Shown here: one piece after another, positions 5,683 to 63,600 of the stretch
How positions within the stretch are numbered: position 1 is the stretch's first letter
Layout of the letters: the number at the start of each line of letters is the position of its first letter
Origin: an uncultured Candidatus Binatia bacterium
Lineage (GTDB): Bacteria > Desulfobacterota > Binatia > UBA9968 > CAXXLF01
Reading direction: 5' to 3'
DNA: 64,000 bases
Assembly (NCBI GenBank): GCA_965218425.1
Contig: OZ244621.1
Coordinates: 353,368-417,367 of the forward strand
Program-made: the position numbers and the translations under genes
The notes under the pieces: generated by a model
Seen by the model: only the letters and a program-made list of their open reading frames with translations
What the model was told of the DNA's origin: nothing
The model's database searches: none

Positions 5683-6744
5683 TCAGCGCTGGAACCACTT
5701 GAACCACCCGGCGGGCATCTCCTGTCCGATGCCGCGCTTCTTCGCGCGGTCATAAACCAACGCAACCGTGGCCGCATACTGAACCCCGGTCCCATTATTA
5801 ATATAGTAGTTTCTCTCTTCCGGACTCTCCCGTCCCGGGGCTTTGCCAGATAGGACGTCCGCTAGCGTATGGTGATGCGGTATCACATTGAAAACGTCCA
5901 GCATCTCAGGCGTTGTCGCCGTCCTCAATGGACTATGTTCAGGCTCGGTAAAGTGATGGCTTGAGGCGCTGTCAAAGCTGGTGGCCAGCCGGTGGAACAG
6001 CTTGATCCCTTCTAACTCCAACTCCATGGACCCTTCGCCCGTCTGAACCCCGGTGAAATGTACACCTGGCTCCAGCCATTCCTTTTTCACGAGCGGCTCG
6101 AACCGACTTGAAGTACAGGCTGCGACGATGGCCGACCCTCGAACCACGGCCTCGGGGTTGTCCATGGATTTTACCCGCACCCCGGTCTTCAAGTTTAACC
6201 ATTCGGAAAAGGTGTTTCGGTGCTCCAGGCTTGGGCTGTAGACCTTGAACAACTCCAGCGGCCGGACGCAGGCGTAAGCCAAAGCATGGGCACGCGCCGT
6301 GCTACCGGAGCCAAGGATTCCTGCCACCTTGGCATCCGGCTGTGCCATCTCGCGCGCAGCCAGCCCAGCGCTCCCGGCATGCCGGTACCAGGAGATATCG
6401 CCGTTGCTCATCATGGCGAGCAGTTCACCGCTCTCGCCGCTAAAAAGCATGGACATGAAGGTGCCGTGTGGACCTTGCAGCTTGTGAATATCCCTGGTCT
6501 CGCTGGTTGCCTGGAGCATGGATCTGATATTGATAACCACCACAGGAGGATTTCTCAGTCCTCCCAGACTCGTGACATGAGTCATGGCGTGACCGTGTTT
6601 TCCACCCATGTAGACGGTGGCCTTGGGTCGATAGGAGGCCGCGCCCATGGCCTCTTGTTTATAGGCGCTCTCCAAGGCCTCCAAGTTCTCTTTCATGTCT
6701 AGGACAGAACGGACATCCTCTTCACTCAGTAGAATAGGTGGCAA
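5683..6744 (-). CDS. ornithine cyclodeaminase/mu-crystallin family NAD(P)-dependent oxidoreductase
   Basis: Rossmann GxGxxA (AGILGSGSTARAHALAY) and OCD-family N- and C-terminal regions. 353 aa. Confidence 0.65.
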   Translation of the reverse strand: MPPILLSEEDVRSVLDMKENLEALESAYKQEAMGAASYRPKATVYMGGKHGHAMTHVTSLGGLRNPPVVVINIRSMLQATSETRDIHKLQGPHGTFMSMLFSGESGELLAMMSNGDISWYRHAGSAGLAAREMAQPDAKVAGILGSGSTARAHALAYACVRPLELFKVYSPSLEHRNTFSEWLNLKTGVRVKSMDNPEAVVRGSAIVAACTSSRFEPLVKKEWLEPGVHFTGVQTGEGSMELELEGIKLFHRLATSFDSASSHHFTEPEHSPLRTATTPEMLDVFNVIPHHHTLADVLSGKAPGRESPEERNYYINNGTGVQYAATVALVYDRAKKRGIGQEMPAGWFKWFQR

Positions 6745-29518: not shown

Positions 29519-30772
29519 TCATTCGGGACGCGGCCGGGCAGTGCCGAATGGGACTTCAAAAACCTCGTGTCTGCTATCAAAGACTTCCTTCTTGGTTCGT
29601 ACGCGGCTCAGTTCGATTCCCTTCCGTCGCGCTCCTGCGCGGGTGTCCCGCTCTGAGCACCATCCTTCGAGGTCGATGGCCTTGTTGTCGCCCAGGTCAC
29701 GAATGATGTTCATAGGTTCCCCACCCCGCTCAACCACCTCGATCTGTTCCTTCAGCATCTTGCGATACATGATTATTCCGCGATCGGACATCCCCACGTG
29801 CTCTTCATCCCGCCCATAGATCTGCCCCTGGGTTTCCCAGGCCATCTTGTCCTGGCTATAGAAGGTATTCATTGTATATTCGCCATCAGGATAGGTCTGA
29901 GGCGGGGGGTCTTCCAGCGGCGGTTCCTCCGGTTGCGCAACAGGCTCCCCATCGTCGCTGGGTTTGAAAAGGACGACGTAGATTTCCGTATGGGTATCGT
30001 CCACGGGAACCCGCCAGTGCATAGCGCTCCAGATATCCGATTGCCGAAACATAGTAGGAAAGACGAGTGGATTGCCCCATCCGGATCCGGCAGTATCGCC
30101 TTCGTACTCCCAGCTTTTCAGTAGACCCCACTGAAACGGCTGGAAACCATACCGGGCAAACGGACGTCCCAAAAACCCGGTGGACATGGTGCTTCGTCCC
30201 GCCTTTTTGAAGGCATAGGCGTGGAGGATTGAGGTATGGACAAAATCCATTGTGTTCTCGACTGCCTGTAGCCAATTGCAGTTCAACGTCTCCTGGCGTT
30301 CGATTCTCCGGTGACCCCGGTCCCAAACGAGGATGTCCCACCGCGGTAACAAGGGAGCCGGTTCCGGTCCCATGTAGGCGAACAAGAGACCTGCGAGTTT
30401 CTGGACCGGGTAGGCCCTATGCCGGATACTTTCCTTGAATTTAGGATTGGGCTCGAAGGGCTGCTCAAGACAACTGCCGGAGCGGTCGTAAAGCCACCCG
30501 TGGTAAGGACACCTTAGGCCACCATTTTCCAGGAAACCATAGTACAGGGAAGTGCCCCTATGGGAGCAGTGCTCTTCCAGGAGACCGAATTCGCCCTTCT
30601 CGTCCCGAAACAGCACCAGATCCTCTCCCAAGACCTTGACCCGTTTTTTCGGACGGTCAGCGGTTAGCTCGCTTGCCGCTGTCACCGGATGCCAGTAGCG
30701 GCGCATCAGATTTCCACACGGGGTACCAGGTCCCACTTTGGTCAACAGATCGTTTTCATCCTTGGTAAGCAT
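29519..30772 (-). CDS. Rieske [2Fe-2S] non-heme iron oxygenase alpha subunit (phthalate dioxygenase/VanA/KshA-type), paralog 1
   Basis: Rieske CSHRGTSL...CPYHGW, mononuclear iron motif DFVHTSILH, N-terminus MLTKDENDLLTKVGPGTPCGNLMRRYWHP. Start taken at ATG 30772; the ORF is also open from a TTG at 30790. Confidence 0.8.
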   Translation of the reverse strand: MLTKDENDLLTKVGPGTPCGNLMRRYWHPVTAASELTADRPKKRVKVLGEDLVLFRDEKGEFGLLEEHCSHRGTSLYYGFLENGGLRCPYHGWLYDRSGSCLEQPFEPNPKFKESIRHRAYPVQKLAGLLFAYMGPEPAPLLPRWDILVWDRGHRRIERQETLNCNWLQAVENTMDFVHTSILHAYAFKKAGRSTMSTGFLGRPFARYGFQPFQWGLLKSWEYEGDTAGSGWGNPLVFPTMFRQSDIWSAMHWRVPVDDTHTEIYVVLFKPSDDGEPVAQPEEPPLEDPPPQTYPDGEYTMNTFYSQDKMAWETQGQIYGRDEEHVGMSDRGIIMYRKMLKEQIEVVERGGEPMNIIRDLGDNKAIDLEGWCSERDTRAGARRKGIELSRVRTKKEVFDSRHEVFEVPFGTARPRPE

Positions 30773-30786
30773 GCTCTTTGCTTCGC

Positions 30787-32127
30787 TCAACTACCGTTAC
30801 GGTTAACCTTCGCGGCATCGATCTTTGGCCTCGCCGCACCGTAGGGAACATCGACTATCTCATGCCGATTGTCAAAGATCTCATCCTTCGATTTCCCATG
30901 CGATTTGCCGCCGGCCCAATAGGGGTCCCGGTAAAGATCGGCTTCGTTTTGCCACCCCGCAAGCTCGATGCAGACGTTCTTCTCGGGGTCGCGTACAAGC
31001 CCCCAGGGATCCCCGCCCTGACCAACGATCTCGATCTGTTCCTTAAGCATTTTACGGAACATGATGATTCCCCGATCGGATTCACCCAGGTGCTCCTTTG
31101 AACGGTCAAATAGCGCACCTTGGGTCTCCCAGGCCATCTTGTCATGACTGAAGAAGGTATCCATTGTGTATTCGGCGTTGGGGAGCATCTGCGGTGGCAT
31201 GAATTGGACTAAAGGGTCCTCTCCCTCCTCCACCTCCTGACCATCCTCGCTCGGGCGGAAATGGACAATGATGAGCTCTGTACGGTAATCGTCAATAGGA
31301 ACGCGCCAGTGCATCTGAGCAGTAATGCGCAGCATGTTGGGAAAAATTAATGGATGCCCCCAGCCTTCACTGCCATGCTTGCCTCCATAAACCCAACTTT
31401 TTAACAGCCCCCACTCGAAGGGCTGGAACCCATAACTTTCAAACGGACGTCCATAACCAATTTCATCGGCAGGCGATCTGTTGCCATCCGGCTGGTATCC
31501 CAAGGGAAGGTTACCAGGGCTCATTACCCCCTGTTCTGATTGAGCTCGGGCCCTTTGTCTCAGTGTGTGGGAATGGAGGAAAAAAGTGTGGGTTACATCC
31601 ACGGAATTTTCTTCTGCCTGGAGCCAGTTACAGTTGAGGGTCTCTTGACGCAGGACGCTACGGTGACCATTTTTCCATGCTAGTATATCCCAACGGGGCA
31701 GGAGGGGCTTGCGGTCTGGGGGACCCATGTAGGTGAATAATAACCCGCCCAGTTTCGCAACCGGATAGGCCGGGTGTCTCACCTGTTCCCGAAACTTCGG
31801 GTTGGGCTCGAAAGGCTGCTCTAAACATTTTCCGGCCTTGTCGTAAAGCCAGCCGTGATAGGGACAACGGATGGAGCCACTTTCTATGAATCCATAGTAA
31901 AGAGACGTCCCACGGTGGGCACAGTGCTCACCAATAAGACCATAGCCACCTTTTTGGTCGCGAAAAAGGACAAGCTCTTCGCCCAGAATCTTGATTCGCT
32001 TCTTGGGCCGATCCTCCGTCAACTCCCTGGCTCCGGCTATGGGATGCCAGTAACGGCGCAGCAACTCACCGCACGGAGTCCCGCGGCCTACGCGGGTTAA
32101 AAGCTGGTTTTCTTCATTTGAGAGCAT
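30787..32127 (-). CDS. Rieske non-heme iron oxygenase alpha subunit, paralog 2
   Basis: CAHRGTSL...CPYHGW, VDVTHTFFLH, N-terminus MLSNEENQLLTRVGRGTPCGELLRRYWHP. 14 nt upstream of paralog 1. Confidence 0.8.
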   Translation of the reverse strand: MLSNEENQLLTRVGRGTPCGELLRRYWHPIAGARELTEDRPKKRIKILGEELVLFRDQKGGYGLIGEHCAHRGTSLYYGFIESGSIRCPYHGWLYDKAGKCLEQPFEPNPKFREQVRHPAYPVAKLGGLLFTYMGPPDRKPLLPRWDILAWKNGHRSVLRQETLNCNWLQAEENSVDVTHTFFLHSHTLRQRARAQSEQGVMSPGNLPLGYQPDGNRSPADEIGYGRPFESYGFQPFEWGLLKSWVYGGKHGSEGWGHPLIFPNMLRITAQMHWRVPIDDYRTELIIVHFRPSEDGQEVEEGEDPLVQFMPPQMLPNAEYTMDTFFSHDKMAWETQGALFDRSKEHLGESDRGIIMFRKMLKEQIEIVGQGGDPWGLVRDPEKNVCIELAGWQNEADLYRDPYWAGGKSHGKSKDEIFDNRHEIVDVPYGAARPKIDAAKVNRNGS

Positions 32128-32277
32128 AGGAAATTCCGACAATGAGGGAAGTACCACCGTTGGCGGGGACTGTCAACGACTTCAATGGGTTACCTATTAC
32201 CACCGATATCACTCAAAGGATCCGCTACCCGGGCTTTTCACTCCATCAGATCTCCACACTGAATTCGGCCAGGTTAA

Positions 32278-36208: not shown

Positions 36209-37471
36209 ATGCTACCCAAAGAGAGCAATGAGCTGATTACTCGAACGGGACCGGGTACGCCTATGGGTGAGTTGATCAGACGATATTGGATCCCCGCCTT
36301 GTTGTCAGAGGAAATCACTCAGCCGGACTGCCCCCCGGTGCAGGTGAGGATCCTGGGTGAGGAGCTCGTTGCCTTTCGCGACACCAAGAGAAAGATTGGC
36401 CTCCTGAATGAACACTGCTCCCACCGGGGAACATCACTCTTTTATGGCCGAAACGAAGACTGCGGCCTACGGTGTATCTACCATGGCTGGAAGTACGACG
36501 TGGAAGGAAACGTTGTGGACACTCCGGCGGAGCCCGCTAACAGCGACTTTAAGAAAAAGCTGCGCCACCCTGCCTATCCCACCGTGGAAGTGGCCGGGAT
36601 TGTCTTTGCTTATTTAGGTCCTAAAGAAAAGATGCCCTTGTTTCCCATGTATGAATGGGCTGAGCTTCCCCAGGACCACACCTATGTTACCAAGTGTCTA
36701 CAGGACTGCAACTATCTGCAGGGCCTTGAAGGCGAATGCGACTCGTCCCATCTTTCCTTCCTGCACCGCGAGTTCAGCAAAGACCGCGTACAAGCGTTGT
36801 ACCAAAGGGATAGCGCGCCCAAATATGAAATCGAAGAAACCGATTTCGGCCTGAGGCTCATCGCTACCCGTAAGGCGGGTGCCGACCAAACCTACATCAG
36901 GGTATCCAGTTTCACTACACCCATTGCCTGCTGGGTACCGGCACGTGGCCGCGAAACCCATATCTACGTACCGGCAGATGACACCCATAGCTGGAGATAC
37001 GATCTTGGGTTCCTCAAGGATAGAGCCGTACGCGACGATGAGGTCCACCGGCGCAAACAGATCGGGCCTGATTATCGCAGGATACGAAACATCCACAACC
37101 ACTACCTGCAGGACAGGCAGGTACAAAAAACGATCAGTTACACCGGAATTGAGGATTTTCTAAACCATGACTCTTGCGCCACGGAGACTATGGGCCCCCT
37201 CTATGACCGCAGCAAGGAACATTTAGGGGTTAGTGACACCGCGGTCATTGCCATGCGCAAGTACTTGTTGGATGCTGTTAAAACTCTGCAGGAGGGTAAA
37301 GAACCCCCGCACATCGTGCGAGACCCTGCAAAGAACAACTTCGGCCACGTGGATACCCTAGCCCAAGTGATTCCTTCGAACATACCCTGGCGAGAGTTCT
37401 TCACACACCTAACCAAAACAGGTCAAGCGAAGGGCTCGGCGACGGGCAAAACGAGGCAAAAGGCTTCTTAG
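36209..37471 (+). CDS. Rieske non-heme iron oxygenase alpha subunit, paralog 3
   Basis: CSHRGTSL...CIYHGW, CDSSHLSFLH, N-terminus MLPKESNELITRTGPGTPMGELIRRYWIP. RBS gggagg upstream. Confidence 0.8.
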   Translation: MLPKESNELITRTGPGTPMGELIRRYWIPALLSEEITQPDCPPVQVRILGEELVAFRDTKRKIGLLNEHCSHRGTSLFYGRNEDCGLRCIYHGWKYDVEGNVVDTPAEPANSDFKKKLRHPAYPTVEVAGIVFAYLGPKEKMPLFPMYEWAELPQDHTYVTKCLQDCNYLQGLEGECDSSHLSFLHREFSKDRVQALYQRDSAPKYEIEETDFGLRLIATRKAGADQTYIRVSSFTTPIACWVPARGRETHIYVPADDTHSWRYDLGFLKDRAVRDDEVHRRKQIGPDYRRIRNIHNHYLQDRQVQKTISYTGIEDFLNHDSCATETMGPLYDRSKEHLGVSDTAVIAMRKYLLDAVKTLQEGKEPPHIVRDPAKNNFGHVDTLAQVIPSNIPWREFFTHLTKTGQAKGSATGKTRQKAS

Positions 37472-37528
37472 CTCGCCTGATTCCGATGTTTTTTAGGCAA
37501 AATTCGCCCGGGTATTGTACGACCTATC

Positions 37529-38290
37529 CTATACCCAACCCCGATTCCATCGCTCGCCTTTTTTAACCTTGTCGGCGTAATAGTTCCACTCGGCAGAGTG
37601 TTGGGCCGGCGCCGCTCCCCTCCCAAGCTCCCGAGCACGCGCCATGAGCTTTGCCGAGGTGGCCTGAATGGACTGGATAAATTCCGGTGTTGGACCCGTG
37701 TACCCAAGCATGTGTGCCATGGCCTGCATTTTCGCAGTGCGCTCTAAATAGAGGGCGTTCATGCAGGCTTCGTCCACCGTCTTTCCAACCGAGACGATGC
37801 CATGTCCCTTGATGATCACCGCGGGGGCCTGACCAAGGGTCTTGGCCAAGTCCGCTCCCTCCTGCGCGTCAATGATAAAAATGGGGTCCGGATAGATGGG
37901 AACGCCTTTGCCGAATCGTTTCGACTGTTGGTGCATGTTATACACCGTCTTATCGGCCATACTGAGGGCAATACACATGGGTGCATGGGAATGAACGGCG
38001 GCGGTCACGTCTGGCCGGGCCTTGAATGCCTCGCTGTAGATGGCCGCCTCCATGGGTATGGTTCCAACACCGGACAGTTTGTTCAGCGAGTAGTCGAAGC
38101 GAACGAACCAGTCTTTGACTCCCGGCTCCTCCGGGGGGCGAAAAATCTTCACCGCGATGGATTCGGAATCCGGGATTCGGGTGGCCACGTGACCCCAGAT
38201 ATCCCCCATTTCCCATTCGAGGATCGACGAGGCAATCCTCAACTCTTCTTCCAATACATCAATGTCTGACATGCACCCCGCCTTTTGCAT
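37529..38290 (-). CDS. class II aldolase/adducin-family protein (3,4-dihydroxyphthalate decarboxylase / L-fuculose-phosphate aldolase-like)
   Basis: Metal-binding histidines in ...WGHVATRIP...AAVHSHAPMCIA...HGIVSVGKT. Its start overlaps the stop of the upstream SsuA-fold gene by 1 nt (TAATG). Confidence 0.65.
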   Translation of the reverse strand: MQKAGCMSDIDVLEEELRIASSILEWEMGDIWGHVATRIPDSESIAVKIFRPPEEPGVKDWFVRFDYSLNKLSGVGTIPMEAAIYSEAFKARPDVTAAVHSHAPMCIALSMADKTVYNMHQQSKRFGKGVPIYPDPIFIIDAQEGADLAKTLGQAPAVIIKGHGIVSVGKTVDEACMNALYLERTAKMQAMAHMLGYTGPTPEFIQSIQATSAKLMARARELGRGAAPAQHSAEWNYYADKVKKGERWNRGWV

Positions 38291-39252
38291 TATGTTTCAA
38301 GCGTGCCTGCCGCAAAGAAATCCTCTAATGCGAGCTTCTTGCTGGTGATGCCCTGCTCGGCATTATAGGTAAGATAGCTATCGATCATGTTCTTGTTTGC
38401 CCTGACCCCATATTTCCAAGGGTCTCCCCAATCCTTTATCTGTTCCTCCAGGCGCTCTCGTAGATAGACCACTGAGAATCCCGCCCGGTCGTTCAGGATA
38501 TCCTCATAGGCCAGCTTTTTTGCCTCCTCAAAGGCGGTAAAGAGCTTGCCGGCCAGATCCGGATTCCCACGGTCCAGTTTCTTGCTCATTACGATCTGGT
38601 GCATGGTGGCGTAAATGCCGGTCTCCCGATACAGCTGCAGGTCCTCCTCCACGTAATTGGGAAATAGACGCATAATCGACGGGTCTTGCTCGAGAGTACG
38701 GAAAGCCTTACCGTCTGAAATATCGGTGATGATGGCGTCTACCTCTCCATCCAGCAGGCGGTTTATTGGAGTCTTCTTGGGGTCCTCTGCAGCTTCAACC
38801 TTGGGTTCGGTTTTATGGAGGGGAAAGACCCTGCGTGGGATCGAGGTCACCCACCGCAGCTTGGAGGTGTCCACGCCATGCCTGTGTTGAAGCAGGCCCT
38901 GCAACCAGATGGTAATGGACGTTGGATAGGAGTTGCTCCCGATACGCTTGCCCTCGAGGTCCTTGGGTGAGTTGATCCCTCGGTCCGCGCGGCAAAACAG
39001 AAAGGTGTAAACCGGTTTCCTCTTTGAGAATACCGGCAGGCCGATCAGTTCCCAACCTGCTTCGATGGCTGGCAACACGTAGCCCGCGTTCAAGTCACAG
39101 AGCCCAAAAGCACCTTCTCGAAGCTCCGGTACGTCGTTGAAAACCATGGAGCTGGTGCGCACAGGCTTTAACTCAACACCCTCGATTTTCACCCGCCCTT
39201 CGAGCAAGGGCATGGTGTGATCGTAACGCATTATTGGAAACGGTACTTCCAT
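38290..39252 (-). CDS. cytoplasmic SsuA/NMT1-fold (COG0715-like) protein of the 4,5-dihydroxyphthalate decarboxylase-like family, copy 1
   Basis: SBP type II fold signature (LEGKRIGSNSYPTSITIWLQGLL...GVD...GEVDAII). No signal peptide. Start taken at ATG 39252 (MEVPFPIMRYD...), which has a G-rich RBS; the ORF is open to 39309. Confidence 0.55.
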   Translation of the reverse strand: MEVPFPIMRYDHTMPLLEGRVKIEGVELKPVRTSSMVFNDVPELREGAFGLCDLNAGYVLPAIEAGWELIGLPVFSKRKPVYTFLFCRADRGINSPKDLEGKRIGSNSYPTSITIWLQGLLQHRHGVDTSKLRWVTSIPRRVFPLHKTEPKVEAAEDPKKTPINRLLDGEVDAIITDISDGKAFRTLEQDPSIMRLFPNYVEEDLQLYRETGIYATMHQIVMSKKLDRGNPDLAGKLFTAFEEAKKLAYEDILNDRAGFSVVYLRERLEEQIKDWGDPWKYGVRANKNMIDSYLTYNAEQGITSKKLALEDFFAAGTLET

Positions 39253-39364
39253 TTTGCAACCCCCCGACAAAGCTGGTGCAGAATTACCACCCTCCCCAAT
39301 GGCAGTCAAGGGGGAACGACTCTATCATGCGATCCGGTGCGTGTAGCACCTCAGTCCTCGGCAA

Positions 39365-39562
39365 GGAAGGGCTCGGGGGCCCGTCCCTCAGCGGGAGCCG
39401 ATGGGTTTATACATCGAGGTCCCGCCATTAAATTCGAAATGCCAAGCTGGATTAAGCATCCAGTATCGGACGTCTCCCTTTCTTCGGAACAGGCCCCCCT
39501 GCACTCTCATCCGGAAGACGACGCGGGGGAGTAAAACGGAAGACCGTGGGCATCGAACACGG
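39365..39562. repeat. copy 1 of a roughly 195-bp conserved intergenic element shared with 42310-42505
   Basis: Three highly similar blocks (cagcgggagccgatggg..., cagtatcggacgtctccctttcttc..ggcccccctgc, gtgggcatcgaac) in the same order and orientation as copy 2. Confidence 0.6.
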
Positions 39563-39629
39563 ATCACCTGACATTTACAGGCCTATTGGCCTCGGTCGGA
39601 GGCGGATCTTCAACGCTTTTTCGCGAGCC

Positions 39630-40847
39630 TCACTTGACGAGATAGGGCCAGTGCTCACGCCAGCTTTCCTCTGCAGGGAACACTTCATGGACGGTGTCCA
39701 CATGGGTCATGTCGTTTTTTGCGGCATCCGTAATGATATGAGGGGGCTCCGTACCGTTCTGAAATGACTTCACCGCATTTAGAAGATAGTTACGCACCGC
39801 GATGACGGCTTTGTCGCTCATGCCCAAGCGCTCCTTCGAACGATCGAAGATGCCAGAATAGGACATGGTCTCCGTAGCGCAGGCATCCTGCACCATGATC
39901 TCCTTGATGCCGGTGAAATTCTGACTTCGCATCATCTCCGCGTCCTGGAGGTAGTCGTTGCTGAGATTGGGGATTTTCCGATAATCAGGACCGATGGAGG
40001 ACCGACGGTGCATATCCTCCGGCGTGACGGGCCGGTTCAGATAACCAAGGTCGTATCTCCACGTACGGGTGTCGTTGATGGGCGCATACATGTGAATTTC
40101 CCGGTTAAAAACCGGCACCCAAACCTCCACGGGCATAACAAAGCTCGAGACGCGTATATAGTGTTCCTTTGGATCGGGCTGGGATCGAGCGGCGATTAAA
40201 CGCACCCCGAAGTCAGTCTCCTCTGTCTCGTATTCGGCTGTCAGGTCCTGGAGCACGGGTCTACCTCGACCGAACTTTTGGGCACCATGGTGCATGATGG
40301 CCACATGGGCGGTATCACACTCCCCTTCCAGTCCCTGTAACCAATTGCATTCCAGGAGGACCTTGGTGACGTAAACATTCTCCTTTGGCGCCTGCGTAAA
40401 GCGATAGTTGGGAAAAAGAGGCATTTTCTCCCTGGGACCCAGGTAAGCCCAGATAATTCCGGCAACCTCATGCGTTGGATAGGACAGGTGTTTGACTTTA
40501 TCCCTGATGACACTGCGGTCTGGTTCTCCGGGGGTATCTAGTACGTTTCCCTCCACGTCATATTTCCAACCATGATAGATACAGGTCAGGCCACACTCTT
40601 CGTTGCGTGCATAAAACAGCGAGGTTCCGCGATGGGAACAATGTTCGCCCAGCAATCCGACCCTGCCCTCACTGTCTCGGAAGGCCACCAATTCTTCGCC
40701 CAGTAACCGCACACGCACGGGACGGCCGTCTCGCTCGGAGATTTCTTCCGAGAGCAGCGCAGGCAGCCAGTAGCGCCGCATCAATTGACCAAGCACCGCC
40801 CCGTTGTCCGTCCTGGTAATGAGATCATTGTCTTCTTTGCTCAGCAT
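39630..40847 (-). CDS. Rieske non-heme iron oxygenase alpha subunit, paralog 4
   Basis: CSHRGTSL...CIYHGW, CDTAHVAIMHHG, N-terminus MLSKEDNDLITRTDNGAVLGQLMRRYWLP. Confidence 0.8.
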   Translation of the reverse strand: MLSKEDNDLITRTDNGAVLGQLMRRYWLPALLSEEISERDGRPVRVRLLGEELVAFRDSEGRVGLLGEHCSHRGTSLFYARNEECGLTCIYHGWKYDVEGNVLDTPGEPDRSVIRDKVKHLSYPTHEVAGIIWAYLGPREKMPLFPNYRFTQAPKENVYVTKVLLECNWLQGLEGECDTAHVAIMHHGAQKFGRGRPVLQDLTAEYETEETDFGVRLIAARSQPDPKEHYIRVSSFVMPVEVWVPVFNREIHMYAPINDTRTWRYDLGYLNRPVTPEDMHRRSSIGPDYRKIPNLSNDYLQDAEMMRSQNFTGIKEIMVQDACATETMSYSGIFDRSKERLGMSDKAVIAVRNYLLNAVKSFQNGTEPPHIITDAAKNDMTHVDTVHEVFPAEESWREHWPYLVK

Positions 40848-40995
40848 AAGCGTCCTCCTTACTCCTCACAGCTATACAGCCAGATGAAGAAGGCACATGA
40901 GACACGAATAACATTACACCCTGCGCCCGATTCCCTCCTCACTCAGTACTAAACCGCATTGCCCACTGCTCTCTGCTACTATGCCGTGGTGTCTC

Positions 40996-42024
40996 TTAAG
41001 TGTCCCTTACGGCCGTGTGAAATAGATCGTCTACACTAGACCGCCCCTGGGTTAAGCCCTGCTCCGCGGAGCTGTGAAACATCATCTCCAGCATTTTTCG
41101 ATTGGCCTTCAAGCCCAATGGAAAGGGATCTTCTCCAAAGATCTTGGTTTGCCTTCTAATATCGTCTGCCAAGAACAATAGATATCCAGCCCCCTGTTGT
41201 TTTGCCCTTTCATAGGCTACTTCCTTGCTTTTCTGAAATGCCTTGAAGAGTTCCATGGCCACCCAGGGCTCTTTTTCCAAAACCTTGTTCTTGACTATCA
41301 CCATATGGTTTACGGGGATCACCCCCGTTTTGCCATAGAAATCACCAATAATCTGCCGGCCGAAATCGGGAAATAATTTTCGGATTCTTGGATTATCCTC
41401 GATGATGGTGCCTCCATGACGGTCGATAGGCTTGGCCACGCCAGGGTACTGGCGCGCAATCACACCATAGGCAGCGTCCAGCTCTCCCCTGTCTAGCATC
41501 ACATCAAGAGACTGATCTTCCTTGAGCCAGTGAAGGTCAATACCGGTGGGCGGGGTCTCGGCCAGCCCCAGCTCACCTCCGTGGCTGTGCTCAACTGTTC
41601 GGCCGTTGAACCAGACAATATCTTTGGCGCCAATTCCATAGAGCTCCTTCAGCACCGCCTTCATCCAGACCGCCGCAGTCATATTGTAATCGGGGACGCC
41701 CACTCTTTTGCCTGCGAAGTCTTTTAGCTCGTTGATCTTGGCCCCCGTATTCACAAACAAGGTAAGCCAGACAAAGGCCTTGGAGAGAAAGACCGGCAGA
41801 CCGCTCCATTGCCATCGGGTACCGTCGCCCCGCTCCTTGGTCATGGAAAAACTGGAGATGGACATTTCAGACACGTCGAATTCTTCATTTTTTAGATTGC
41901 GGTAAAAGAGGTTTCCCGGATCAATGATGACAAACTCCAGCTCGATGCCTTTTGGTTTTACAGTACCGTCGGCTAAAGGCTGTATGCGGGGATTGTTGGA
42001 AAATCCGATGGTAAGCTTGAGCAT
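40996..42024 (-). CDS. cytoplasmic SsuA/NMT1-fold protein (4,5-dihydroxyphthalate decarboxylase-like family), copy 2
   Basis: MLKLTIGFSNNPRIQPLADG... starts directly in a beta-strand with no signal peptide. LKDFAGKRVGVPDYNMTAAVWMKAVLKELYGIGAKDIVW fits the SsuA-like fold. Confidence 0.55.
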   Translation of the reverse strand: MLKLTIGFSNNPRIQPLADGTVKPKGIELEFVIIDPGNLFYRNLKNEEFDVSEMSISSFSMTKERGDGTRWQWSGLPVFLSKAFVWLTLFVNTGAKINELKDFAGKRVGVPDYNMTAAVWMKAVLKELYGIGAKDIVWFNGRTVEHSHGGELGLAETPPTGIDLHWLKEDQSLDVMLDRGELDAAYGVIARQYPGVAKPIDRHGGTIIEDNPRIRKLFPDFGRQIIGDFYGKTGVIPVNHMVIVKNKVLEKEPWVAMELFKAFQKSKEVAYERAKQQGAGYLLFLADDIRRQTKIFGEDPFPLGLKANRKMLEMMFHSSAEQGLTQGRSSVDDLFHTAVRDT

Positions 42025-42309
42025 AGTGCCTCCTCGGTTTTAATGAGATGGTGAGTTTACGCGGCATTCCCGTAGCGGATCATAACAGAACATTGGCGTA
42101 TGATGTCAACCTGAGACTGGCTATCAGGCTAGTGGTGCGGTTGCGTGGATGAGAACCCTGGTCCTAACGATGAAATGAACATGAGTTTGCACAAGGAGTC
42201 GCCGTCCCTTTTCCTCGACAGGCTCGGGATGGTGAGCGAAGTCGAACCACGATTCAGCGGTGCTTCGGCGGGAAGGATTGCTTGCCGATGTAAAAACCGG
42301 CGAGGAAAT

Positions 42310-42505
42310 CATGGGCTCGGAAACCCGCCCCCCAGCGGGAGCCGATGGGCTCATACCTCGAGGCCCCGTCGTTTGATCCGGCACGTCAACTTGGCATGAA
42401 CCTGCAGTATCGGACGTCTCCCTTTCTTCAGGCCAGGCCCCCTGCGCCCTGGATTCAATGAGCGACGAGGGGGCGAGGATGAAGAACGTGGGCATCGAAC
42501 GTGGT
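42310..42505. repeat. copy 2 of the roughly 195-bp conserved intergenic element
   Basis: See 39365-39562. Lies in the divergent region between the SsuA-fold gene and the epimerase gene. Confidence 0.6.
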
Positions 42506-42759
42506 GCTTCAGAAATTCACTGGCTTATTGCCCACGGCCTGAAGACTCGCGCACCGAAGAGCACGGATGGATTGGGAGAAATTGGTCTTGGCGGCCTGCG
42601 CCGTATGAAAACCAGAGGCCTCCCACTCGCAGGACCCTCGTCGCAATAGACCGCATATCCGAATCCACGAGGACCGACTGGGGCTTTCAATGGGATCGCT
42701 ATCCGTATAATAAGGTTTGAAGTGAATTCTTTATTAGGGCGCTGATAGGAGGATATGCC

Positions 42760-43707
42760 GTGATTCTAATCATTGGTGGCATGGGATTCATCGGTCTGAA
42801 TACCGCTCTCCGTCTGCTGGACGTGGGAGAGAGTGTTGTCATTACGCAGTACAGCATGCGTCGAGTGCCCGCCGTTCTTGAGCCGGAGTTGGATAAACGG
42901 GCCTTTGTTGCACCAATGGACGTGACAAAAGGCTATGAGGTGATGGACGTTGTTCACCGATACAAAGTGGAGAGCATCATCTCATTTGCGGCCCCTCCCG
43001 CCCGAGGCATCAGCGCTCAGGAAGATTACCGCATCTATACGGACGGGCTACAGAACACCCTCGAGGCGGCACGGGTTTTCGGCCTGCACAGGGTATCCCT
43101 GGCCAGTTCCACCTCGGTGTACGGCAGCCTTCAGGAAGGGCCCTTCCGGGAGGACATGCCGCTACCGGTTCAGGCCAAGACCCAAATAGAGGCGTTCAAA
43201 AAAGCCATGGAGGTCCACGCATTCCACTATTCAACTCGGATCGGTCTAGACTTGGTTGCGCTCCGCATCGGCAGCATCTACGGGCCCCACTACTACAGCA
43301 TGTTCAACCCCATGAGTCGCATGTGCCAGGCGGCGTTGAAGGGTTCAGACCCCGACTTCTCCGATCGCCCCGCCGGCTCCATACGCGAGGATGACGAAGG
43401 CGATTGGACCTATGTCGCGGATCTAGCCAGAGGTATCGAGCTGGTACACAGGGCGGGAAAGCTTTCCCACAACACTTATAACGTAGGCTCAGGCAAGGCC
43501 ACTTCCACCAGGCGCATATTTGAAGCGGTGCAAAAGATCATACCAGGTGCGCGCTGCTCTGCTCTCAAACCCGGGCGAAGCGGCGCCATGCCCATAAACC
43601 CGGTTATGGACTTAAGCCGAATTAGCAAGGATGTCGGCTACGAACCTGAGTACGATATCGACTCCGGTATGGCGGCCTACGTGGAACATCTCAAGGGACA
43701 GCCCTAA
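42760..43707 (+). CDS. NAD-dependent epimerase/dehydratase (extended SDR) family protein
   Basis: N-terminal ILIIGGMGFIGLNTALRLL Rossmann motif. 315 aa. Confidence 0.7.
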   Translation: MILIIGGMGFIGLNTALRLLDVGESVVITQYSMRRVPAVLEPELDKRAFVAPMDVTKGYEVMDVVHRYKVESIISFAAPPARGISAQEDYRIYTDGLQNTLEAARVFGLHRVSLASSTSVYGSLQEGPFREDMPLPVQAKTQIEAFKKAMEVHAFHYSTRIGLDLVALRIGSIYGPHYYSMFNPMSRMCQAALKGSDPDFSDRPAGSIREDDEGDWTYVADLARGIELVHRAGKLSHNTYNVGSGKATSTRRIFEAVQKIIPGARCSALKPGRSGAMPINPVMDLSRISKDVGYEPEYDIDSGMAAYVEHLKGQP

Positions 43708-43753
43708 CAGCAAGAAGGCTCTTCAGCCCTCTAAGCGAAACCCACAGGACCCG

Positions 43754-45076
43754 TCACGATTCCGCTTGATTTACACCGACACCTTCCCATCGTGAGGCGG
43801 AAAGGATGTCACGATAGGCGTCGAGCCAATGGGTTCCTTCATCGGCCACAAAATGGCCGCCACGAACCCGGTCATAGTATTCCGGGTGATCTGCGCTGGG
43901 GGGCAGGGTCTTATCCTTCTCGTAAGCAAGCGCGCTCCGAATCAAGAGACGACGCACCCGGGCAATCATAATGTCGCTAGGGGCCAGATGCTCTATGGTG
44001 CGGTCGAGGATGGCTCCCATGCTCTCCTGGATCGCCTGGTCCTGCATTTGGACTCCTTCAATTCCGGTATAGCTTTGGGTACGCTGGACCTCGCGGTCAA
44101 TACCATAGTCGTTAGTTGCGTTGAGGGAGAGCCGCCAGCGACCATACCAATCCGTGGTGTTGGGGAGATAGGGATAGTTTCGTGAGGCGCCGGCAATCTC
44201 ACCGTCGCGGACGGGTCGGCCTTGATAAGGATAGGCTCCCTGCTTGATGAGCTCCACGATCATGGTGTGAGTGTCGTCCATAGGCACATAGGCGCGAGTC
44301 AACACATTGGTTTGCAATGAATTGATGGGGGGCATGGTCCAGAAAGGAAAAAGGAAATGGCCGAACCGCCAGTAGGTCTGTCCCTCATGGGCCGGTCGGT
44401 GGGCGGCGTAGATGTAGCCGTAATCGGTTTCCTGGATTTTGTATTCCGGCGCCCGGTTAGCAACCACGAACTGTTGTTGAGCGTCTGGCTGAAAGGCGCT
44501 GCGGTCGATCTTACCGAAATGCATAATCCCCACGTGGGAGGTATCCAGCTCCCCCTCCAACCCCTGGAGCCAGTTGGCCTCCCGCTGGGTAAAACGGATG
44601 CTGAGCTGATCCTCTGGCACTAACGTGGATTCCACAGGGGGAAAGGCGGGAGGAGCCTCCTGGCGCTCACCCATGTAAACATAGACAACCCCGTTGCGCT
44701 CCACAATCTTGTAGGCCCCGGCTTTCACCTTGTGTTTGAAATCTAAATCCGGCGGCAAATTGGCTTGATCGACGCAATTGCCTCGCACGTCGAACTTCCA
44801 TCCGTGATAGACGCATCGGATTCCGTCCTCTTCGTTCCTACCAAAAAAGAACGAGGCGCCGCGGTGCGGGCAGCGGTGGTCCATGATACCCGCTCGACCC
44901 GAGGAATCGCGAAACGCGATGAGCTTCTCCCCCAGGAGCACCAGCCGCATGGGATCGCCGTCAGCTTTGAGCTCCGCAGACATGGCCGCGGGGATCCAGA
45001 ATTGCCGCATTAACTCCCCCATGGGCGTACCACGCCCAACCCGGGTCAGGATCTCGTTATCGCGTATGTTGGTCAT
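43754..45076 (-). CDS. Rieske non-heme iron oxygenase alpha subunit, paralog 5
   Basis: CPHRGASF...CVYHGW, LDTSHVGIMHFG, N-terminus MTNIRDNEILTRVGRGTPMGELMRQFWIP. Its start overlaps the nitroreductase stop by 4 nt. Confidence 0.8.
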   Translation of the reverse strand: MTNIRDNEILTRVGRGTPMGELMRQFWIPAAMSAELKADGDPMRLVLLGEKLIAFRDSSGRAGIMDHRCPHRGASFFFGRNEEDGIRCVYHGWKFDVRGNCVDQANLPPDLDFKHKVKAGAYKIVERNGVVYVYMGERQEAPPAFPPVESTLVPEDQLSIRFTQREANWLQGLEGELDTSHVGIMHFGKIDRSAFQPDAQQQFVVANRAPEYKIQETDYGYIYAAHRPAHEGQTYWRFGHFLFPFWTMPPINSLQTNVLTRAYVPMDDTHTMIVELIKQGAYPYQGRPVRDGEIAGASRNYPYLPNTTDWYGRWRLSLNATNDYGIDREVQRTQSYTGIEGVQMQDQAIQESMGAILDRTIEHLAPSDIMIARVRRLLIRSALAYEKDKTLPPSADHPEYYDRVRGGHFVADEGTHWLDAYRDILSASRWEGVGVNQAES

Positions 45077-45809
45077 GACCGTCCCTCCTCCGGCACATCA
45101 CTTTCAGGCCGGGTTTTCCTCCCGTAGGAACCCCGACGGGTCAGGGTCATAAGGAACTTGTTAAAATCCTTTTCGCCTCTAAATTTCTTCATGTCATATT
45201 TCTCCGCGTGTGTCATACTGTCCAATGCACGACGAGGCGGAGGACTCACTGGTGTAGAAGGATACCCAATCGGGACAACGTGGTAGATTCTCAAAGGTTC
45301 GGGAACCCCCAACAGAACCTTGAGCATGGTAGACATATAAGGAGAGCTGGCGTCGCTCACGTATTGAGCCCCCAAGCCTAGGCTGGTGGCTGCAAGATGA
45401 ATCAAGAGAGTCGCATTGGCCAACCCACTGTAAAAATGGGAATCGGATTTTTCCTCCCGTGTTCGGATGGGATAGGATTCATTGACTCTGGGATCGCCGA
45501 GAACCACAATATGGACCGGCGCATTGCGAAACCCGGCCCCCGTCATCTTGATCTCCCCTCGCACGGCCATCTCCCTCTCTTTTTTATGCTCCAACTGCTT
45601 TAGGTATAGATCCGCGATTTTGTTTCTCGTTTCCTGATCTCGGACCACGATAAATTCCCAGGGTTGCCCATTGCCCCCCGACGGCGTCCAACTGGCAACC
45701 CCCAGTATTTTCTTGACCACCTCTTCGGGAACGTCCTTGTCCTTCTGATATCCCCGGATGCTTCGCCGGCTCATCACTAACTCGCAGAATTCATCAATAC
45801 TCGACATGG
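45073..45809 (-). CDS. nitroreductase-family FMN-dependent oxidoreductase
   Basis: LVMSRRSIRGYQKDKDVPEEVVKKILGVASWTPSGGNGQPWEFIVV is the classic nitroreductase N-terminus. Start taken at ATG 45809 (RBS ctggag upstream); the ORF is open to 45870. Confidence 0.7.
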
Positions 45810-45832
45810 CCATCTCCAGATCCGGATTCAAC

Positions 45833-46804
45833 CTAGAGTGTGAGACTCTCGGGAAAGAATAGATCCTCAAGCTTCGGTTTTTTGTCTAAAAGTCCCTGCT
45901 GGACCTGGTATTCCATGAGAGTCTCCAAGGACTTCCGGGCACAGGAATCCAACCTATAGGAGAATGGATCGTCCTCCATGACTTCCCGCTCCCATCGGGC
46001 TTCTTTCTTTTGCTCTTCGTTCATGTAATTCTCCGCCAGTGCACGGGCCTGTCGAAAGACCCTCAACAAACTCCCAACCACCCAAGGATGCCCGGCCACT
46101 AGTTCCTCCCGTAAAGCCAAACTATGGATGATGGGGATAACCTGAGTTCGCCGGAAGTAGTCTGCCTCCACTCGATACGAGTCTTCGAATAGGCGACGCA
46201 ACCTAGGATTTTTTGCCAGGCCAGGATAGGGCTCCAGCGCAGCGTCTATCTCACCCTCCTCCAGGAGCTCAATGGCATGCTCCCGAGTTCTCGGCGCCGA
46301 TATGAACTGCACCCGGACGCCTTCGGGTCGAAGGCGTAGCCCTTCCTCCCCCACATCGTTTTCGGCAACGTACCAATCCATCTCCTCTGGCCGTACCCCG
46401 TAATCGTTTTGCAGCAGTCCACGCACCCATACGGACGTGGATGCATTGTAACGATGCACGGTGACCCGTTTTCCTTTCAAATCCGACGGCTGGCGCACCG
46501 ATGAATTAGCCGGGCAATATATGCATCGATGCCGAAACTGGCGGGAAATAAATACTGGAAATATCTTTAAGGGCACTCCGCGGTTACGAGCCAGAATAAA
46601 CGAAGACGTGGAGCATTCCCCACCGGGAATCTTACCCTCAATGATCCATCGGTGGCGAGCACCCGTGTTGTCGTATCCCTGCGAAAACTGGCTCCGGCAC
46701 TCAAGATCGATGCCCTCTGGTTTAACATGCCCGTCGAACAGGGCCTGAGTGCGGTTATTTAGGGACAATCCTAAAGTGAGGGGCAAGGGCTTAGCCATGG
46801 TCAT
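45833..46804 (-). CDS. cytoplasmic SsuA/NMT1-fold protein (4,5-dihydroxyphthalate decarboxylase-like family), copy 3
   Basis: MTMAKPLPLTLGLSLNNRTQALFDGHVKPEGIDLE... with no signal peptide. DLKGKRVTVHRYNASTSVWVRGLLQNDYGV fits the SsuA-like fold. First gene of a three-gene overlapping operon. Confidence 0.55.
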   Translation of the reverse strand: MTMAKPLPLTLGLSLNNRTQALFDGHVKPEGIDLECRSQFSQGYDNTGARHRWIIEGKIPGGECSTSSFILARNRGVPLKIFPVFISRQFRHRCIYCPANSSVRQPSDLKGKRVTVHRYNASTSVWVRGLLQNDYGVRPEEMDWYVAENDVGEEGLRLRPEGVRVQFISAPRTREHAIELLEEGEIDAALEPYPGLAKNPRLRRLFEDSYRVEADYFRRTQVIPIIHSLALREELVAGHPWVVGSLLRVFRQARALAENYMNEEQKKEARWEREVMEDDPFSYRLDSCARKSLETLMEYQVQQGLLDKKPKLEDLFFPESLTL

Positions 46805-52379: not shown

Positions 52380-52520
52380 CTGGCTAAGAGCGTTTGGCTG
52401 GTTAGATTTTGGGCGTTATTGGGTTGATTGCGTTTGTTGGGCTTAAGGGACCAGAGGTCGGGAGTCAGAGGTCAGACAACGGAAATGGGCAATCGAATAT
52501 CGGACTCGGGGAAAAGATCA
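52380..52520. repeat. composite intergenic heptamer-repeat element, copy a (G/T-rich TTGGGTT-type block, then a (TCAGARR)n-like block)
   Basis: gtttggctggttagattttgggcgttattgggttgattgcgtttgttgggctt ... ccagaggtcgggagtcagaggtcagaca. Confidence 0.5.
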
Positions 52521-54687: not shown

Positions 54688-54689
54688 TA

Positions 54690-55035
54690 TGGTTAATTTA
54701 GTCTAACTGGTCTATTCGGTCTATCTAGTCGATCTGGTTTGTTGTGTTGTAAAAGTTCATCGGGTTAATTGAGTTGACGGATATTGTGAGGCATGTTTGG
54801 TTGACCCGGACTGTCTCATCTATCTCGTCTGTGCGATGAATCCGCAATGGGTACACGATCTGTCGCTTATGGTACCCGCCAAAGAAGGAATAGTAAACCC
54901 CGAATTGGTGCCTAGGGAGTTTAATGAGTTCTTTGGGTAGATTGAGTTTATTGGGTTTTAGAAATCGGACATCAGAGATCAGAAATCGGAACTTTGAAAG
55001 TCAGCGGTCAAGGGAGTCACCAGCAATTAACCGCA
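54690..55035. repeat. composite intergenic heptamer-repeat element, copy b (GTCT-type block, G/T-rich block, TCAGARR block)
   Basis: tagtctaactggtctattcggtctatctagtcgatctggtttgttg ... gagtttaatgagttctttgggtagattgagtttattgggtttt ... catcagagatcagaaatcggaactttgaaagtcagcggtc. Confidence 0.5.
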
Positions 55036-55764: not shown

Positions 55765-55925
55765 AGTTAGCCTATCGAGTCTATTTTGTCTATCTCGTTG
55801 ATTTTGTGGTACAAATGGTCCGAAAAGGTCAGATTAATAAACCAGACCGAACAAACCAAATCGACCAAATAAACTAGATAATCCGGATAAACCAACCTGA
55901 CCAAATTGACGAAACAGACTTGAGC
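55765..55925. repeat. composite intergenic repeat element, copy c (GTCT-type block in inverted orientation)
   Basis: gagtctattttgtctatctcgttgattttgtgg ... aaccagaccgaacaaaccaaatcgaccaaataaactagataatccggataaaccaacctgaccaaattgacgaaacagac is the reverse complement of the GTCT/TTGGTT block type. Confidence 0.45.
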
Positions 55926-58819: not shown

Positions 58820-59005
58820 GCAGATTTCGGAGAACGGAGCTCAGAGGTCAGAAATCGGAAGTCAAAGGTCGGCCGTATCGCCGAATTCCGACCTCTGATT
58901 TCAGACGTTGGCTCTGTCGAACGCAACAAACTCAATGAACTCAAAAAACCATGGAAACAAGTTGGCTAGCTCAACTAGATAGACTAAACAAACCTTATTG
59001 ACGAA
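58820..59005. repeat. composite intergenic repeat element, copy d ((TCAGARR)n plus hairpin-like tail, then inverted GTCT block)
   Basis: gctcagaggtcagaaatcggaagtcaaaggtcggccgtatcgccgaattccgacctctgatttcagac ... ctagatagactaaacaaacc. Confidence 0.5.
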
Positions 59006-61999: not shown

Positions 62000-62195
62000 T
62001 AATTCCTTGGGGCTGTTCGGTTTGTCTAGTCGATTGAAGAGTTTGAGTCAATAGCGGAGGCGTCGTCCATTGGGTTTTCGAGTTCTTTGAGTTTATTGAG
62101 TTCATTGGGCTTGGGAGGTCAGAAGTCGGATGCCAGACGTCAGGAATCAAAGGTCAGCGGTATAACCGATCTCTGATCTCTGTTAGCTGCTAACT
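62000..62195. repeat. composite intergenic repeat element, copy e
   Basis: gttcggtttgtctagtcgattg ... gagttctttgagtttattgagttcattgggcttggg ... aggtcagaagtcggatgccagacgtcaggaatcaaaggtcagcggtataaccgatctctgatctctg. Confidence 0.5.
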
Positions 62196-63344: not shown

Positions 63345-63600
63345 GCTTTTAGGTAACTGAGTGCGTTGGGTTTATGGGATTTGTTGCGTTTATGGCGTTG
63401 GTTGGGCTTATCTAGTCTGTTTCGTCTTTCTAGTCTATTCGGTCATTTCAGTTAATCTGGCTCTTGCGGTTTGTTTGGTTCTGGAGATGGAAAATCAGAA
63501 GTCAGAGGTCAGAAATCAGAGGTTAGACACCAGACGTTGAAAGTCAGAGGTCGGCCGCATCACCGATCTCCCACGTCTGTTCTCTGACATCTGAGATAGA
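63345..63600. repeat. composite intergenic repeat element, copy f (the longest (TCAGARR)n run)
   Basis: gttgggtttatgggatttgttgcgtttatggcgttggttgggcttatc / tagtctgtttcgtctttctagtctattcggtcatttcag / aaaatcagaagtcagaggtcagaaatcagaggttagacaccagacgttgaaagtcagaggtcggccgcatcaccgatctcccacgtctgttctctga. Confidence 0.55.

Follow-up and report, generated by a model that had tools for sequence, protein, structure and literature searches.

Why should two non-coding stretches of DNA resemble each other far more closely than the genes they precede? The question is raised by a 64,000-nt stretch of contig OZ244621.1 from an uncultured Candidatus Binatia bacterium (hereafter the window), in which two genes on the minus strand, 38290-39309 (start called at 39252) and 40996-42024, encode NMT1/SsuA-fold proteins that share only 27% amino-acid identity, whereas the copies of a non-coding element lying upstream of them (w1 and w2, respectively) are ~73-76% identical. 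This excess of non-coding similarity, already pointed out in the initial annotation, is genuine. It had been ascribed to conservation of a cis-regulatory site or of a structured 5'-untranslated-region RNA, with something akin to a MITE (miniature inverted-repeat transposable element) as the alternative. The evidence discussed below favours instead, with a probability of roughly three in four, the notion that w1 and w2 are independent insertions of a lineage-specific, non-coding and non-autonomous dispersed hairpin repeat of the REPIN/ERIC/MITE kind. This is based on multi-copy dispersal, unrelated neighbours, presence/absence at orthologous loci, near-neutral divergence and a strand-specific hairpin.

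A repeat search of the window returned two pairs of direct repeats, 39360-39498/42304-42442 (139 nt, 76%) and 39539-39600/42481-42542 (62 nt, 74%). MAFFT alignment bore out the three shared blocks first described, in the same order and orientation, with exact stretches of 17, 25 and 14 nt (CAGCGGGAGCCGATGGG, CAGTATCGGACGTCTCCCTTTCTTC and CGTGGGCATCGAAC); the 25-mer occurs exactly twice in the window, with none expected (100 shuffles, up to three mismatches). Both copies are thus real, and they are slightly longer than originally proposed when their extents are defined by alignment of the whole repeat family, whose unit consists of two modules named D1 (138 nt) and D2 (~110 nt). Each is assigned to the strand that better preserves the D1 hairpin; the family consensus is written on the plus strand.

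39369..39603, minus strand: w1, with D1 at ~39369-39508 and D2 at ~39509-39603 (nhmmer profile positions 1-234 of 249, E 9.5e-65), followed by a decayed tail to ~39627
39461..39485, unstranded: block B core of w1, CAGTATCGGACGTCTCCCTTTCTTC, exact 25-mer
42313..42561, minus strand: w2, full length, with D1 at ~42313-42451 and D2 at ~42452-42561 (nhmmer profile positions 1-249, E 1.4e-68)
42405..42429, unstranded: block B core of w2, exact 25-mer with the same letters as the w1 core

The location of both copies 5' of minus-strand SsuA-fold genes is roughly as first stated. w1 is found between the stop of a Rieske/LigXa-like gene (39630) and the SsuA-fold gene 38290-39252, starting 117 nt upstream of the ATG called at 39252 and 60 nt from a TTG at 39309. 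For w2 the spacer is a divergent one, with the SsuA-fold gene 40996-42024 (minus strand) on one side and an epimerase gene 42760-43707 (plus strand) on the other, and the copy starts 289 nt upstream of the ATG at 42024.

The distribution of the element provides the first line of evidence. An exact scan of one genome per species with a 19-mer core (TATCGGACGTCTCCCTTTC) identified 17 loci, 15 of which are on four contigs of a single Candidatus Binatia metagenome-assembled genome (MAG), CBDCDW01, and one in a second Binatia MAG, CAXXLF01; a match in a Rhodospirillales contig aligns over the core only and is probably due to chance. Alignment of these loci defined a unit of ~248 nt, running from GGGCTCGGGGGCC to CGCTCCCCGAGGAG, and an nhmmer search with a family profile made from 12 full copies (249 positions) found matches lacking the exact 19-mer (L010:626-792, L007:309-436, L015:4460-4579 and L022:8316-8539). 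Six copies end early, at differing points inside or just before D2, while isolated D2 fragments occur head-to-tail directly ahead of full copies. In the related genome CBDCDW01 there are therefore many copies unlinked to SsuA-fold genes, which the initial annotation had named as the signature of a mobile element. Importantly for the origin of the window pair, w1 and w2 are each 77-80% identical to particular CBDCDW01 copies and 73% identical to each other (blastn), indicating separate insertions rather than the relic of a paralog duplication. The excess similarity is hence explained by independent insertion, each copy being nearer to copies in another genome, and not by retention since the gene duplication. 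Only six matching loci were found in a scan of Joint Genome Institute (JGI) metagenomes, which makes the distribution of the family narrow, and the viral contigs scanned contain no match to the element. The family is apparently a previously undescribed one in Candidatus Binatia, with no match in Rfam and nothing relevant, or mentioning Binatia, returned by a literature search. A coding function was considered and rejected, since no reading frame is consistently open across copies and the copy lengths differ by non-multiples of three.

The genes beside the CBDCDW01 copies share no functional theme. Neighbours of the copies encode glutathione S-transferase (GST), Maf, ThiF, a GDSL lipase, ilvN, ilvC, MoaA, YchF, Jag, a luciferase-like monooxygenase, UbiD, an alpha/beta hydrolase, NUDIX, PCMT and SDR proteins, amidohydrolases, CoxG, an epimerase and an IS256-family transposase, the latter at 460 nt from one of the copies. 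At ~3.5 kb from one copy there is also a group II intron (L014:7372-8000; Rfam domains D1-D4 and D5-D6), with no apparent relation to the repeat. D1 hairpin copies are confined to spacers. When both neighbours could be classified (15 copies), the spacer was divergent in nine cases, tandem in six and convergent in none, every classified copy being upstream of at least one gene. In the tandem spacers, the minus strand of the element is co-oriented with the genes twice and opposed to them four times, and the element has thus no fixed orientation relative to the downstream gene. This bears directly on the possibility that w1 and w2 are a structured cis-regulatory RNA (riboswitch, attenuator or leader) for the two SsuA-fold genes. 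Such a role would be consistent with both copies being 5' of paralogs in the same orientation, and with a long stem whose G·U wobbles are kept on the gene-sense (minus) strand; moreover, read-through from the Rieske gene upstream could extend transcription into w1. It is at odds with the unrelated genes found beside the other copies and with their two-to-four split in tandem spacers, as well as with the unequal distances of w1 and w2 to the start codons (117 versus 289 nt). In addition, neither w1 nor w2 has any match in Rfam 15, be it at the gathering score or at E values up to 10, and Rfam likewise returned nothing on the element in 16 related loci.

Comparison of orthologous loci also speaks against a regulatory role. 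Syntenic loci were taken from homologs of the protein encoded by 40996-42024. In L022, where the SsuA-fold protein is 89% identical, the epimerase-SsuA spacer measures 196 nt versus 735 nt in the window and lacks both w2 and an adjacent repeat (module A, see below), a block of ~590 nt being missing. The w1 site is filled in L022, which has an extra D2 fragment there, and empty in L024 (72% identity, 202-nt spacer), while L023 shows no element. L024 lacks the element at both SsuA sites, with the genes intact. Turnover is equally apparent elsewhere. The spacer between ilvN and ilvC, within the ilvBNC cluster, contains the element in CBDCDW01 (L008) and does not in the window's own assembly (L034), nor in four further relatives in which IlvN is 95-98% identical and the spacer has other repeats or nothing. 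As a consequence of differing repeat insertions, this spacer varies from 254 to 720 nt (L008 and L033-L037), yet the last ~75 nt before ilvC, with TTGACA-16-GATATT and a ribosome-binding site, are conserved in all six loci. At another pair of orthologous Binatia loci, consisting of a GDSL lipase gene and a SAM (S-adenosylmethionine) riboswitch-ThiF unit (ThiF 74% and lipase 62% identical), a family member is found in the shared divergent spacer in opposite orientations (L006:4542-4814 and L017:6017-6265). In L017, an IS256-family transposase is inserted between the element and the SAM riboswitch.

The rate of change points in the same direction. The sole orthologous pair of copies, w1 and its L022 counterpart, is 70% identical when its 23 gap columns are counted and 77% without gaps, to be compared with 66-73% at third codon positions and 84-89% over whole coding sequences for the flanking genes. 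The core is identical at 24 of 25 positions in this pair and the arm with which it pairs has lost 1 nt. Judging from these figures, the element overall appears to evolve close to the neutral rate. Much better conserved are the gene-proximal ends of the same spacers, in which two promoter-like blocks are found:

39279..39309, minus strand: TTGACT ... TAATTC, promoter-like block between w1 and its SsuA-fold gene, recognisable in L023 and L024
42079..42109, minus strand: TTGACA ... TGTTATGAT, block with an extended -10-like motif between w2 and its SsuA-fold gene

On the w1 side, the first 64 nt 5' of the SsuA-fold gene agree with L022 at 84% of positions, with a single gap; on the w2 side, the figure for the first 89 nt is 89%, with no indels. 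By their resemblance to the sigma-70 consensus, these TTGACT/TTGACA blocks with their -10-like motifs are candidate promoters, and if they are promoters then w1 and w2 lie upstream of the transcription start and outside the leader. A scan for sigma-70 promoters and terminators gave counts not above those of shuffled sequence and showed no terminator at the element ends. Separately, a sigma-54 promoter in the TGGCA-containing apical region was rejected by eye, the spacing being wrong and the motif not kept between copies. Taken together, distribution, orthology, rate of change and position largely refute the riboswitch/leader scenario for the SsuA-fold genes, which we consider very improbable.

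What, then, is conserved in the element? RNAalifold predicted a long D1 hairpin on either strand, with arms of ~35 nt interrupted by internal loops, in which the paired segments are GGGGGCC/GGCCCCC, CAG..GGGAG/CTCCC..CT and, around an ACGT internal loop, CCGAT/ATCGG, with CGTC inside the internal loop of the stem. The complementarity between blocks noted at the outset (GGGAG/CTCCC and CCGAT/ATCGG) was therefore correctly perceived, and the stem is kept in a strand-specific manner. For a fixed structure of 20 pairs over 23 copies, 89.3% of cells pair when read on the plus strand (35 A·C mismatches, 2 G·U pairs) and 96.3% when read on the minus strand (2 A·C mismatches, 35 G·U pairs), an asymmetry that is distributed over 11 of the 20 pairs and many different copies. 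The minus-strand covariation score is 0.161, compared with 0.125 in shuffles (0 of 500 reach the observed value) and at most 0.067 with slid partners, and six pairs have changed on both sides, though in related paralogous copies whose inverted-repeat ends would co-vary likewise. These pairing statistics are only indicative, because the copies are related and because paired transposon ends would co-vary too. The metagenome loci include a variant (L028 and L030) that has the fully complementary GGAGAGGGAGG and CCTCCCTCTCC in place of the outer stem. No strand asymmetry was found in D2 (13 G·U versus 10 A·C), and single-sequence folding was uninformative (z-scores from 0 to -2.2). A D1 stem that is strand-specific and tolerates wobble pairs suggests that the minus strand of the window adopts a single-stranded form, as RNA or as DNA.

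The block B core, which makes up one arm of the D1 stem and is built around the palindrome GACGTC, is where the family is most conserved. It is conserved far above the rest of the element, including in the diverged subfamilies L006, L028/L030 and L032, which is partly an artefact of searching with the core. Nevertheless, 23-24 of its 25 positions are identical in copies found without requiring it (L010a, L022a and L027b). Together with the strand-specific structure and the lack of copies in convergent spacers, this would fit a multi-copy family of trans-acting small RNAs, or a mobile element carrying a functional RNA, in which the core would provide either a C/U-rich anti-Shine-Dalgarno-like seed (CUCCCUUUCUUC, plus strand) or a purine-rich one (GAAAGGGAG, minus strand). 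This is unlikely, since the repeat unit has no conserved promoter or intrinsic terminator, many copies are shortened at different points, the orthologous copy decays with indels that include the 1-nt deletion in the arm pairing with the core, and core conservation is to some extent produced by the search. A related and similarly doubtful idea is that D1 is a mobile strand-specific structured nucleic acid in which the core and the G·U-tolerant stem have been selected across diverged Binatia subfamilies. D1 might for instance serve an enzyme encoded by a transposon as its orphan guide- or scaffold-type RNA, or might be a portable regulatory RNA module in promoter-proximal position; a functional D1 would account for the fact that every copy faces at least one gene start.

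The conserved palindrome in the core and the nine of 15 classified copies found in divergent promoter spacers, with none in convergent ones, could also suggest a repeated binding site for a regulator or a nucleoid-associated protein present at many promoters, the near-palindrome TCGGACGTCTCC being the operator. However, an operator is much smaller than this 250-nt unit and its conserved hairpin, the neighbouring genes have no common function, the sites are not kept between orthologous loci, and a double-stranded site would leave the strand-asymmetric wobble unexplained, all of which makes this scenario scarcely credible.

Several observations weigh against a mobile repeat and need to be set beside those that favour it. 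No target-site duplications were found at ~20 copy ends, no conserved target motif of the IS200/IS605 type was found at either end, and no transposase is consistently near copies. A clean filled/empty pair that would define the exact ends of the element was sought at three loci (the two SsuA sites and the ilvN-ilvC spacer) and none was found, each of these spacers being a patchwork of several repeats and deletions. The best genome contains only ~18 copies, a count biased by the exact-match search. In L010:626-1804, two inverted D1 copies bracket a gene (976-1560) encoding a 194-amino-acid protein that has no match to Y1_Tnp and is not an HUH enzyme. Finally, the enrichment upstream of genes, the strand-specific wobble pattern and the 92-96% identity of the core in the three copies found independently of it would fit a selected function as well.

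Regarding the gene in L010, the protein displays a ..ILEFDESQHF.. motif and only a sub-threshold match to DUF7255, and its identification as a REP-associated tyrosine transposase (RAYT) was rejected on the grounds of this match and of the EFDESQH motif, which do not correspond to an HUH transposase. It could be cargo moved by the repeats or a nuclease-like gene. A possible CATAA direct repeat is seen at L027b and not at other copies, and the left flanks of copies look A/T-rich, by eye only. An integron attC site was another candidate, rejected because there are no R'/R'' boxes and the copies are dispersed.

These hallmarks also bear on whether the element descends from a DDE-type insertion sequence (IS) as a classical cut-and-paste MITE. 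It is small, non-coding and multi-copy, shows presence/absence polymorphism, has inverted repeats both at the ends of D1 (GGGC..GGGGGCC/GGCCCCC..GCCC) and at the ends of the whole D1-D2 unit (CTCGGGG/CCCCGAG), and one copy is 460 nt away from the IS256-family transposase mentioned above. However, the terminal complementarity of the D1-D2 unit is only 7 nt, target-site duplications are missing at the ~20 ends, no IS with matching ends was seen in the loci examined, and a stem asymmetry of 35 versus 2 is not expected of a purely double-stranded mechanism. A classical MITE is therefore quite unlikely. The MITE-like alternative of the initial annotation was nevertheless the better of its two proposals in that the element is a dispersed repeat, probably of mobile type, for which neither target-site duplications nor a matching transposase were found.

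A plausible scenario for the dispersed hairpin repeat is that it spreads as a small mobile DNA, probably via a single-stranded minus-strand hairpin intermediate, with the 25-nt core possibly acting as the recognition site for a mobilising protein. As proposed for REPINs (PMC3116915), insertion would leave the target site unduplicated. Copies accumulate upstream of genes, in the spacers between a conserved promoter region and the next gene, with fast turnover among relatives; they are often shortened, sometimes arranged in partial head-to-tail tandems, and intermixed with other repeat families. Any effect on the two SsuA-fold genes would be incidental.

How does this element compare with known repeats? 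ERIC/IRU in enterobacteria and BOX in pneumococci are imperfect palindromes of ~100-150 nt or modular units, intergenic and often transcribed, which are present in moderate copy number, with shortened or interrupted copies and incidental effects on neighbours, and which are not known to encode a transposase of their own. The Binatia element is similarly a modular/palindromic intergenic repeat with a moderate number of copies and shortened forms, although it has no sequence relationship to these families and its host belongs to another phylum. Di Nocera et al. describe repetitive extragenic palindromic (REP) units as palindromes of 20-40 bp, one end of which carries an unpaired tag, GTAG or CGTC; hundreds of them are usually present, and most lie in tandem or convergent spacers, downstream of genes (PMC3733652). 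With REPs and REPINs the element shares a non-coding extragenic nature, lineage specificity, and clustered and tandem arrangements; the replicative unit of REPINs is a ~100-nt hairpin predicted to form in single-stranded DNA or mRNA, and D1 (138 nt) is likewise a hairpin-forming, if imperfect, inverted doublet found as an extragenic unit. Further parallels in the Binatia element are the lack of observed target-site duplications and a CGTC tetranucleotide within the core. There are also differences. The element combines a 138-nt hairpin that has a complex apical part with a 110-nt second module and lacks a short tagged palindrome, CGTC being within an internal loop rather than a terminal tag. 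It has ~18 copies in one genome (by the biased count), none in convergent spacers, and no RAYT was identified, the sole gene between inverted copies being the one in L010 that lacks a Y1_Tnp match. On account of the absence of a short tagged palindrome, the modest copy number and the upstream position, the element falls outside the REP super-families delineated by Di Nocera et al. (PMC3733652). As for MITEs, they have by definition terminal inverted repeats matching those of a parent IS and target-site duplications (PMC10969869). The Binatia element is, like a classical MITE, short, non-coding, multi-copy and polymorphic for presence/absence, and it resembles the Correia/NEMIS MITE in being short and non-autonomous, with inverted-repeat ends, hairpin folding, proximity to promoters and strain variation (PMC10969869). 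It differs in that neither terminal repeats matching a parent IS nor target-site duplications were found in the copies examined.

At this locus, non-coding similarity beside diverged paralogs is a signature of repeat insertion and not of regulation, with the practical consequence that the SsuA-fold genes should not be annotated as riboswitch-controlled. Candidatus Binatia is a poorly studied uncultured lineage. The family could be of use for strain typing or assembly-quality checks, and its strand-asymmetric stem makes it a candidate for the study of single-strand-mediated repeat mobility outside Proteobacteria.

The element is not the only repeat in these spacers. The sequence missing from L022 together with w2 includes a separate one:

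42195..42275, unstranded: module A, dispersed repeat (..CCTCGACAGGCTCGGGATGGTGAGCGAAGTCGAACCACGATTCAGCGG..) to the left of w2, with blastn matches of 73-87% identity in L014, L015 and L018

Module A (..CCTTTCCCTCGACRGGCTCGGGATGGTGAGCRAAGTCGAACCACGCTTCAGYGG..CTCGGCGG..) borders several copies of the element and is found at L014:3450-3530 and ~4060-4130, L015:612-686 and L018:4143-4230. In L014 and L015 inverted copies are found to the right of the element, and with module A thus on both sides some copies may belong to a larger composite unit of ~700 nt. A third repeat family (..GAACATGGACGGAGCAGCGGGCTACCCACCGTGGTCGGCGCCGCATGAAAGCCGGAGTC.., then GGGTCGCTGCGGGAGTCCCGTGGAGCGAAG) is found in spacers of like kind (L005:6700-6790, L007:8-140, L017 ~5700-5950 and L034:3800-4150), at some loci in the very place of D1-D2 between shared left and right modules; the L034 example is in the ilvN-ilvC spacer of the window's own genome. 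Several repeat families thus share the fast-changing spacers that lie upstream of conserved promoter-proximal DNA in these genomes.

Elsewhere in the window, intergenic periodic arrays (52449-52484, 54688-54991, 55766-55806, 58825-58860, 62117-62152 and 63402-63542) are made of 9-nt GTCTATYTA-like or 7-nt TCAGARR-like units and resemble the AGTACTGAGT-type arrays beside elements in the related genome. A 191-nt direct repeat (29715-29905/31007-31197, 73%) falls within the minus-strand open reading frames 29519-30790 and 30787-32157, which are probably tandem paralogous genes. Finally, the pair of SsuA-fold paralogs belongs to a dense cluster (36209-46804) rich in LigXa-type Rieske oxygenases, of which there are three, along with three cytoplasmic NMT1/SsuA-fold proteins, a class II aldolase, a nitroreductase and an epimerase, and no obvious transporter partner is seen for the SsuA-fold proteins in this region. 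Homologs of the one SsuA-fold protein that was searched are named 4,5-dihydroxyphthalate decarboxylase by one source, and the gene content is suggestive of a catabolic island for aromatic acids, where the genes with a 'binding-protein fold' would encode enzymes.

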